Position numbers and translations under genes: made by a program
In this document: piece by piece, positions 6,031-35,663 of the stretch
Position numbering within the stretch: the first letter of the stretch is position 1
Layout: each line of letters opens with the position of its first letter
The notes under the pieces: generated by a model
Seen by the model: only the letters and a program-made list of their open reading frames with translations
Told to the model about the DNA's origin: nothing
The model's database searches: none
DNA from: Eledone cirrhosa
Taxonomy: Eukaryota
Assembly (NCBI GenBank): GCA_964016885.1
Contig: OZ024761.1
Coordinates: 9,424,001 to 9,488,000, forward strand
DNA length: 64,000 nt
Direction: 5' to 3'

Positions 6031-6290
6031 AAAGAGAAAGAGATGAAATCGAAAATGCAACTAGAGTCTTATTTTTTAAAAAATATATATATATTTATTT
6101 GGTTCCTTTACCGGTTTCGCAGTTCTTCTGCTTTTCAAAAGGTGAGTTGAGATGGAGGGTCTGTGGTTTTTCTCAACTCACCTTTTGAAAAGCAGAAGAA
6201 CTGCGAAACCGGTAAAGGAACCAAATAAATATATATATTTAAAAAAAAAATAAGACTCCAGTTGCATTTTCGATTTCATCTCTTTTTCTT
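6031..6290. mobile_element. Fold-back element with U3-A8 variant hammerhead in both arms
   Basis: Arms ~6031-6152 / 6171-6290; + HHR 6181-6218 CCTT-TTGAAAA-GCAG aagaa CTGC-GAAA-CCGG-TA-AAGG. Confidence 0.85.
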
Positions 6291-25280: not shown

Positions 25281-26588
25281 AGGTCTTCAAAATGTTTATT
25301 ATAAACATACAGAATATTTTCGAATATTCTATGTCTATATTCACATATATATCGCTATTTCAGAGCATTTATTCCAATTTCTAATTTCTGCCGGACCGGC
25401 AACCGCTCTTTCAAACCAGTTCCTGTACACAGCTAAGTATTCTATAAGTCTCTAGCTGTGTCATTCTCGATAAAAGCACTGGATATGTAGTCCTGATGAT
25501 TTCTAACAAGAATGAAACGCGTAGATTACTTCCCTTGCTTTTATCGAGAATATAATTGTAATACGTGACGTATTCTATTCTATAGCGATTAGGTCTTCAA
25601 AATGTTTATTATAAACATACAGAATATTTTCGAATATTCTATGTCTATATTCACATATATATCGCTATTTCAGAGCATTTATTCCAATTTCTAATTTCTG
25701 CCGGACCGGCAACCGCTCTTTCAAACCAGTTCCTGTACACAGCTAAGTATTCTATAAGTCTCTAGCTGTGTCATTCTCGATAAAAGCACTGGATATGTAG
25801 TCCTGATGATTTCTAACAAGAATGAAACGCGTAGATTACTTCCCTTGCTTTTATCGAGAATATAATTGTAATACGTGACGTATTCTATTCTATAGCGATT
25901 AGGTCTTCAAAATGTTTATTATAAACATACAGAATATTTTCGAATATTCTATGTCTATATTCACATATATATCGCTATTTCAGAGCATTTATTCCAATTT
26001 CTAATTTCTGCCGGACCGGCAACCGCTCTTTCAAACCAGTTCCTGTACACAGCTAAGTATTCTATAAGTCTCTAGCTGTGTCATTCTCGATAAAAGCACT
26101 GGATATGTAGTCCTGATGATTTCTAACAAGAATGAAACGCGTAGATTACTTCCCTTGCTTTTATCGAGAATATAATTGTAATACGTGACGTATTCTATTC
26201 TATAGCGATTAGGTCTTCAAAATGTTTATTATAAACATACAGAATATTTTCGAATATTCTATGTCTATATTCACATATATATCGCTATTTCAGAGCATTT
26301 ATTCCAATTTCTAATTTCTGCCGGACCGGCAACCGCTCTTTCAAACCAGTTCCTGTACACAGCTAAGTATTCTATAAGTCTCTAGCTGTGTCATTCTCGA
26401 TAAAAGCACTGGATATGTAGTCCTGATGATTTCTAACAAGAATGAAACGCGTAGATTACTTCCCTTGCTTTTATCGAGAATATAATTGTAATACGTGACG
26501 TATTCTATTCTATAGCGATTAGGTCTTCAAAATGTTTATTATAAACATACAGAATATTTTCGAATATTCTATGTCTATATTCACATAT
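25281..26588 (+). repeat. Tandem of 4.2 x 310-bp hammerhead-containing units (retrozyme-like)
   Basis: AGGTCTTCAAAATG starts at 25281, 25591, 25901, 26211, 26521; units look identical; flanked by (TA)n. Confidence 0.95.
25487..25529 (+). ncRNA. Minimal type I hammerhead ribozyme (repeated at 25797-25839, 26107-26149, 26417-26459)
   Basis: GTAGTC-CTGATGA-t-TTCT aaca AGAA-t-GAAA-CGCG-TA-GATTAC; predicted GUA cleavage after 25523. Confidence 0.92.
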
Positions 26589-26688
26589 GTAAATATATAT
26601 ATATATGTAAATATATATATATAATTATGTATATATATATATATATATGAATGTATATATATATATGTATGTATATATATATATATGA

Positions 26689-26722
<34 letters not shown>

Positions 26723-35077: not shown

Positions 35078-35663
35078 CAACGTGCCCTAAAATTAGACAT
35101 CCAGGAACTCAGACACCCCAAACCCAGGAATGAACCGCAACAAAAAACTCTACCATACATCTCCACACACAACCCCCTCAACAATGAGGCATTCGATACC
35201 ATCCTCCAGAACATTCCTTTACTAAAAAGAGTCCCAAGAATGAACAAAATCCTCCAAACACACAACATCATAAAGAGCAAAAGACAACCAAAATCAATAA
35301 AAAACATCCTCACACAAGCGAAAATCCAACAAACCTTCACAATGAACCCTACAGTAACAAAATGCGGAAGGCCCAACTGTGGCATATGCATAAATCTAAT
35401 AGAAGGTTCAACATTCCATTTTAAACAAGGACAGCGTTTCACAGTTAAACACAACTTTACATGTGCATCTGAAAACCTAATCTATGTTTTTACCTGTTCA
35501 GGTTGTCAAGAACATTACATAGGATAGACAAAAAACACCTTCCGTCAACGTATGACCGTCTATAAATCACAAATTAAAATAGAGGAATACAGAAAGATTG
35601 CATTTAGTGAACATATCGCCAATTGTGCTCACAACCAACATCCAGACTTTAAAATTTCCCCCA
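35078..35663 (+). pseudogene. Penelope-like (Neptune-type) RT-linker/zinc finger/GIY-YIG fragment
   Basis: LPYISTHNP...KSKRQPKSIKNILT...KCGRPNCGIC...FTCASENLIYVFTCSGCQEHYIG*TKNTFRQRM; premature stop after YIG. Confidence 0.85.

Follow-up and report, generated by a model that had tools for sequence, protein, structure and literature searches.

The tandem array and its flanks

Within the window, the 64,000-nt stretch of Eledone cirrhosa DNA analyzed here, a tandem array occupies positions 25281 to 26588 on the plus strand. TRF assigned it a period of 310 nt, 4.2 copies, and a 100% match, and direct comparison of units 1 to 4 and the 68-nt fifth unit gave 0 differences, in agreement with the first-pass annotation, which had described four identical head-to-tail units followed by 68 bp of a fifth. 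The array had also been said to be inserted in (TA)n, and AT microsatellite sequence is indeed present on both sides. To the left, (AT)n at 25254-25276 is followed by four 5'-junction bases foreign to the unit (25277-25280, plus strand), and to the right the array borders on an AT microsatellite with interruptions (26589-26720). The GC content of the unit is 33.9%. On its concatemer, the longest stop-free frame spans 59 to 61 codons, which bears out the earlier claim that no open reading frame (ORF) is present, and an ORF combining a reverse transcriptase (RT) with GIY-YIG, a trait of autonomous Penelope-like elements (PLEs), is absent from the unit.

Two segments of the unit recur as 3' ends of insertions. 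Site A (unit 54-72; 25334-25352, plus strand) is an AT-rich tract whose fifth copy forms the array end at 26588, giving the window copy a type A 3' end. Site B (unit 96-105, mostly 98, which is 25378; 25376-25385, plus strand) is predicted to be largely unpaired and serves as the second fixed 3' end at other loci. The window copy represents the one-armed form, which is rarer than the two-armed form described below.

A conserved type I hammerhead in each unit

Each unit carries one predicted type I hammerhead. In unit 1 (25487-25529, plus strand), a 6-bp helix I (25487-25492/25524-25529) encloses an intact core (25493-25499), a helix II with a U-U at its base (25500-25513), GAAA (25514-25517), and a palindromic 6-nt helix III (25517-25522), and cleavage is predicted after 25523. 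The corresponding plus-strand motifs of units 2, 3, and 4 lie at 25797-25839, 26107-26149, and 26417-26459, with predicted cuts after 25833, 26143, and 26453, respectively. The first-pass annotation correctly recognized one hammerhead per unit with a palindromic stem III, but its designation as minimal does not hold, since the motif is of the canonical type with a short helix III and not the helix-III-less form. This short palindrome, with a computed self-pairing energy of -7.5 kcal/mol, matches the dimer-type anatomy that had been proposed, as far as it can be predicted from the sequence. A 15-bp helix (25464-25478/25536-25550, plus strand) surrounds the ribozyme and, like both small hairpins, was found where it had been placed before; it covaries in the sister families, and 5' truncations of insertions cluster at its 3' arm. 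Folding z-scores were -4.1 for the linear monomer, -5.5 for the circular monomer, and -6.9 for the ribozyme domain, and the predicted circular fold is branched, with 60% of the unit paired.

Rfam alone yielded weak and exclusively sub-threshold HH9 matches (19.2 bits, E value of 0.25, under the gathering score of 52 bits), and therefore the case for the hammerhead rests on sequence comparison. Among 15 aligned sequences from the family and its sister families, double-sided changes were seen in 17 of 26 consensus pairs, a count inflated by kinship; the consensus fold of these sequences recovers helices I and II and the outer helix, not helix III. Within the ribozyme core, C3-G8 is replaced by U3-A8, with both positions switching together, and helix III is self-complementary or nearly so across different sequences. 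These comparisons indicate that the hammerhead is conserved as a structure, with compensatory changes, and is a selected ribozyme. A hammerhead core was not found on the minus strand of the unit, and for this reason the earlier term circular RNA replicon, understood as RNA-to-RNA replication, is unsupported. In the L056 array, the cleavage position is fixed for G in 3/3 units, which suggests that a poorly cleaving template may still be copied.

A large and young retrozyme family

The predicted ribozyme pattern matched the 3.0-Gb genome 13,338 times, compared to 0 matches for the reversed control, and the 310-nt family accounts for about 0.14% of the genome bases. Sister families with units of about 314 to 316 nt, which are about 75 to 82% identical over the end-carrying segment, contribute a further 6,456 pattern matches. 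Four of six listed sequence runs were compared, all of them in the form of contigs; among them X1, which may represent the source sample, behaves like genomic DNA, with 695 records and loose ends that enter (AT)n at 25352 and 25380-25383. An assembly artifact or a single locus, either of which would have undermined the first-pass reading, is excluded by the number of genomic matches together with these X1 ends.

The sequence traits of non-LTR retrozymes are all present: tandem units in the range of about 170 to 400 nt, low GC content, absence of an ORF, one conserved type I hammerhead per unit, and dispersal in high copy number. Unit anatomy, the conserved hammerhead, and the dispersed matches thus sustain the non-LTR retrozyme reading, and the identical units, the number of genomic matches, and the clonal loci described below likewise sustain the proposed recent insertion and dispersal. 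Judged by these features, the array represents a single insertion from a young non-LTR retrozyme family that lacks coding capacity. A literature survey, confined to papers proper and mostly to open-access ones, brought up no account of the family and none of clonal retrozyme insertions with two arms and fixed ends; the repeat databases Repbase and Dfam as well as supplements may hold the family. By extrapolation from 14 loci within the first 36 Mb of C1, the family should comprise some 1,200 to 1,700 very young loci, and insertion models can be told apart by the ends, lengths, and haplotypes found there. Another tandem hammerhead pair, with a period of 511 nt, was noted at L111:7068 and 7579.

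Insertions with two arms and two fixed 3' ends

We examined 49 loci, comprising the window, 35 loci chosen by identity to the query among the matches listed (150/183), a choice that biases the unit-272 and 5'-end counts given below, and 13 loci taken in positional order. At 36/49 loci, two arrays in inverted orientation meet at their 5' ends and both outer ends are covered; two further loci are two-armed with only one end covered. The remaining 11 were one-armed (7 A, 3 B, and 1 ambiguous; two of them touch a contig end or gap). All 36 complete two-armed loci combined one A end with one B end, and AA or BB combinations did not occur (0). At site A, the last templated base lies within unit 54-72, mostly at 63, and at site B within about 90-105, mostly at 98. 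The two-armed A/B form was found at 11/14 position-ordered loci, and the same end rule applied to 14/14 complete pairs in the sister families. The first-pass annotation had anticipated dispersed arrays with permuted start points, which is accurate for the scattered 5' starts but not for the 3' ends, which occupy two constant positions remote from the cut.

Almost all of the 3' ends enter (AT)n. Target duplications are unreadable in pure (TA)n, and L048, with its non-microsatellite target, is the one readable locus, showing a duplication of 12 to 15 bp. In 36/36 pairs, the inverted copy was 5' truncated and a tail of 30 to 40 bp was present at one end only, with unit 63 and unit 98 as the commonest ends. 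Published descriptions of PLE insertions include an inverted 5'-truncated copy, a single terminal tail of 30 to 40 bp, and a bias toward (TA)n targets, and, in the sections concerned, the origin of tandem and inverted PLE insertions was stated as an open question (PMC8557442, PMC3846280). By its sequence anatomy, the typical insertion of this retrozyme family is two-armed with a Penelope-like signature. A tiny inverted B arm was not found beside the nine one-armed loci tested for it, the window included. At L066, a four-segment insertion with a doubled central inversion suggests repeated template switching.

Evidence for a proposed circular template

A linear monomer cut at the predicted site would allow arms of at most about 138 nt from site A or about 164 nt from site B. 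These limits were exceeded by 33/36 A arms and 33/36 B arms, the longest arms reaching up to 19 units. The arms cross the predicted cut site 304 times with no added bases, and template jumping on linear monomers was rejected on this ground. Of 72 5' ends, just one falls 5 nt or less from the cut, while 15 map to the 3' arm of the long helix (P = 1e-5, in a partly ascertained sample). Among the 14 position-ordered loci there were 10 haplotypes, and in all 11 two-armed loci of this set the arms match at shared sites; over 38 arm pairs, some discordance was seen in 11, mostly in the form of single-unit changes. Arm lengths, clean cut-site crossings, and clonal arms together make the rolling-circle reverse transcription put forward in the first-pass annotation probable.

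The unit-272 allele carried by the window is rare, the alternative allele making up 99.8% of the X1 depth. It occurs either in exactly one unit (8 to 10 arrays) or in every unit (13 arrays); the all-unit arrays belong to four backgrounds and include up to 23/23 units. Apart from junction-overlapping first units, no intermediates were found at this position. Such a one-or-all pattern is predicted by a monomer bottleneck followed by rolling-circle copying. Variants of intermediate frequency at L049 (3/12) and L037 (3/5) and the discordant arm pairs speak against it.

These data bear on the possibility that an uncut, linear, multimeric read-through transcript served as the template, mobilized by a PLE and primed twice in a manner resembling LINE-1 twin priming, in which both target strands prime and the arms meet head-to-head by microhomology. 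Homogeneous parents would give homogeneous daughters under this scheme, the ribozyme may be slow, and junction microhomology would fit either model. However, a linear multimer cannot turn a one-unit variant into a 23/23 or 11/11 array without intermediates, its first arm should halt near the second priming site, yet the 5' ends of B arms scatter around the unit, and the conservation of the ribozyme with compensatory changes also speaks against it. We regard a linear multimeric template as unlikely.

Two independent runs, as opposed to a fold-back, are the favored origin of the two arms. A-arm length does not correlate with B-arm length (rho = 0.20, P = 0.25), and at 16/36 loci the A arm exceeds the B arm. 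Of 37 central junctions, 14 contain inserts or mismatches, and 17 of the 23 insert-free junctions show microhomology of at least 2 nt, compared to 18.5% expected at random. The inverted arm might instead stem from self-copying of a single folded-back cDNA, a route related to the antisense self-priming put forward in PMC3846280. This would account for the haplotypes shared between arms, and the junctions at L037, L041, L048, and L068 lie on hairpins of the unit itself, with overlaps of 16 to 35 nt. Self-priming is nevertheless very unlikely in view of the uncorrelated arm lengths and of the 9/36 loci where the A arm is longer than its partner, but by fewer than 284 nt, an outcome that a fold-back cannot produce in either order; moreover, most junctions are not palindromes.

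A satellite-like origin, with solo monomers inserted and then amplified by local unequal crossing-over (a model discussed in bioRxiv 10.64898/2026.07.22.740005) or through rolling-circle amplification from circular DNA, is highly improbable. Tandem homogeneity is expected from concerted evolution, and the two variants of intermediate frequency could be local duplications, yet neither the two fixed ends, the inverted arms of one haplotype, and the target duplication nor the non-integer copy numbers, the absence of intermediate mosaics, and the selection on the RNA enzyme would be accounted for.

Further runs, of unrecorded data type and under three other organism codes (X4, X5, and X6), each contain a near-identical unit as one closed 340-nt contig, an appearance that a tandem repeat would share; X6 carries an allele that makes up about 1% of the depth in X1. 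Related hosts, diet, contamination, or transfer could account for the matches in X4 to X6. A viroid-like RNA that replicates from RNA to RNA and is only occasionally endogenized could be read from these contigs, from the 310-nt size with 60% pairing as a circle, and from the many haplotypes with recurrent changes, but it is hardly credible given the lack of a hammerhead core on the minus strand, the branched fold, about 13,000 genomic copies that suffice as templates, and the fact that a tandem DNA repeat also yields a closed contig.

Candidate partners among Penelope-like elements

Our search for GIY-YIG sequences in the same genome returned 10,597 candidates, of which 150 were scored and 40 loci examined. 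A 4.2-kb PLE family encodes a 775-aa RT plus GIY-YIG frame with a cysteine linker, a feature assigned to Neptune and Nematis in PMC8557442. It had 69 near-identical matches, 67 of them without stops; the named relatives of a PLE protein encoded in this genome are mostly from bivalves. The unit of the 4.2-kb family, 4,202 to 4,211 nt long, includes a single hammerhead whose helix III is a 6-nt palindrome, and whole units are also joined head-to-tail into multimers, in which a hammerhead recurs every 4,211 nt. Two-armed insertions of this PLE had one short and one long end in 8/8 pairs, and at two loci, locus-private variants were common to both arms. The tail measures about 54 nt, as against about 35 nt in the retrozyme. 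No significant terminal sequence was shared by the 310-nt unit and this PLE (best E value of 0.05 to 0.18). Searches of the 40 GIY-YIG loci with the unit by BLAST and HMM, the latter weakened by junction-spanning rows contaminating its source alignment, retrieved nothing beyond sister retrozymes and one short match in the ribozyme. The 4.2-kb family is an intact, very young two-ORF PLE with copies about 99.5% identical, seen at L137 (G000:C4:322580700-322590600) and in the set L129 to L146.

In a second PLE-like family, 26/28 nt of the core and helix II are shared with the 310-nt unit, with different flanks. This family follows an A/B-type end rule in 9/9 facing pairs and has a tail of about 68 nt. 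Its representatives L160 and L161 contain an unclassified PLE-like ORF without a Pfam match, and its hammerhead pattern gave 9,393 matches. This family is a possible source of the retrozyme's ribozyme. None of the PLEs sampled, from 40 loci among more than 10,000 GIY-YIG candidates, shared significant terminal sequence with the unit, and tail lengths differ, which leaves these families as putative partners.

A model for insertion and its relation to known systems

From the structure of the insertions, we consider it likely that this young retrozyme is spread by a Penelope-like RT-endonuclease that copies a predicted 310-nt RNA circle, with priming from both target strands. Under this model, an array would be transcribed, and two hammerheads would pair via the palindromic helix III and cut the transcript once per unit, after which a host ligase would close the monomer into a circle. 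A GIY-YIG endonuclease would then nick (TA)n in a staggered fashion, and both exposed target strands would prime reverse transcription on one and the same circle, sharply at site B (unit 98) and, through AT pairing, in a fuzzy manner at site A (unit 54-72). Each run would roll through a variable number of turns, often stalling at the long helix. Microhomology would then join the two cDNA ends, and the product would be an inverted pair carrying a tail of about 35 nt at one end. The window copy might be an outcome in which only the run from site A was kept. Points that weigh against the model are the U-U at the base of helix II in the window haplotype, the differing tail lengths of the PLEs sampled, the single readable target duplication, the inserts or mismatches at 14/37 junctions, and the one-armed form of the window copy, together with the low activity reported for related hammerheads (see below).

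It is tempting to extend this scheme to PLE integration in this genome generally, with both nicked strands priming at two fixed sites on a hammerhead-made RNA circle and then rolling around it, a generalization that could equally well prove right or wrong. If it were true, the pseudo-LTR would represent copying beyond a full turn, the inverted copy would be the product of the second run, and the tail would span the distance between the priming sites; the 310-nt retrozyme would then be a minimal cis-substrate and the 4.2-kb element its coding equivalent.

The retrozyme class, PLEs as the proposed movers, and a circular template as a hypothesis are known; what is provided here is evidence from insertion junctions. 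Compared to LINE-1 twin priming, the two-armed form constitutes the majority in the retrozyme, both priming sites are fixed, and arm lengths are unlimited and independent. A circular template was hypothesized in PMC4209133 (2014) and PMC7229834, in the sections concerned without a test on insertion junctions. Like the non-LTR retrozymes described from coral, mussel, and axolotl (PMC7229834), the family consists of tandem, non-coding units of about 300 nt and 34% GC with a type I hammerhead in each and is present in thousands of copies, and the axolotl motifs share the weak helix III and the U-U at the base of helix II. In contrast, inverted insertions, fixed A/B ends, a (TA)n target, and a target duplication do not feature in the main text of that study.

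With endonuclease-bearing (EN+) PLEs of the Neptune/Nematis type, as presented in PMC8557442 and PMC3846280, the retrozyme has in common the inverted 5'-truncated copy, the tail of 30 to 40 bp confined to one end, insertion into (TA)n, and a short target duplication, as well as partial tandems and a hammerhead whose helix III is a 6-nt palindrome. It differs from these 3- to 4-kb elements in its 310-nt unit, the absence of an ORF, up to 19 turns per arm, and the lack of demonstrable terminal-repeat homology to the PLEs sampled. Low in vitro activity was reported for PLE-type hammerheads (PMC4209133), and cleavage was reported in only 1/9 dimers in a preprint (bioRxiv 10.64898/2026.07.22.740005). 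In the same preprint, retrozymes are viewed as pLTR derivatives dependent on PLEs, and a dependence on PLEs is likewise what we propose. Its argument, in the parts bearing on this question, builds on co-occurrence and similarity in vertebrates and on local tandem amplification, without junction analysis, whereas in the present family the arrays seem to arise in the course of insertion. Our results would tie animal retrozymes to the PLE machinery by insertion anatomy and not only by co-occurrence, and they supply a defined RNA substrate of 310 nt along with an intact candidate enzyme with which the reaction could be assayed in vitro.

Other hammerhead-bearing and Penelope-like sequences in the window

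Upstream of the array, a 116-bp inverted repeat in (TA)n (24692-24941) carries a different type I hammerhead in each arm (24747, minus strand; 24886, plus strand) and looks like a short two-armed PLE-type insertion. The miRNA-like Rfam matches at 24734-24900 were rejected, as they are explained by this repeat, which is unrelated to the array. Ten further hammerhead-like motifs, belonging to several other families and including three facing pairs, were noted at 1221, 6138/6185, 17664/17673, 18169, 20905/24009, 53014, and 63952. The motif at 1221 belongs to the young 4.2-kb PLE family, and the pair at 6138/6185 represents, together with L104:349-5518, another Neptune-type family with the U3-A8 core variant and a tail of about 63 nt on one arm only. 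A fragment of a PLE RT-endonuclease gene, 71% identical to L108, lies at 35078-35662.
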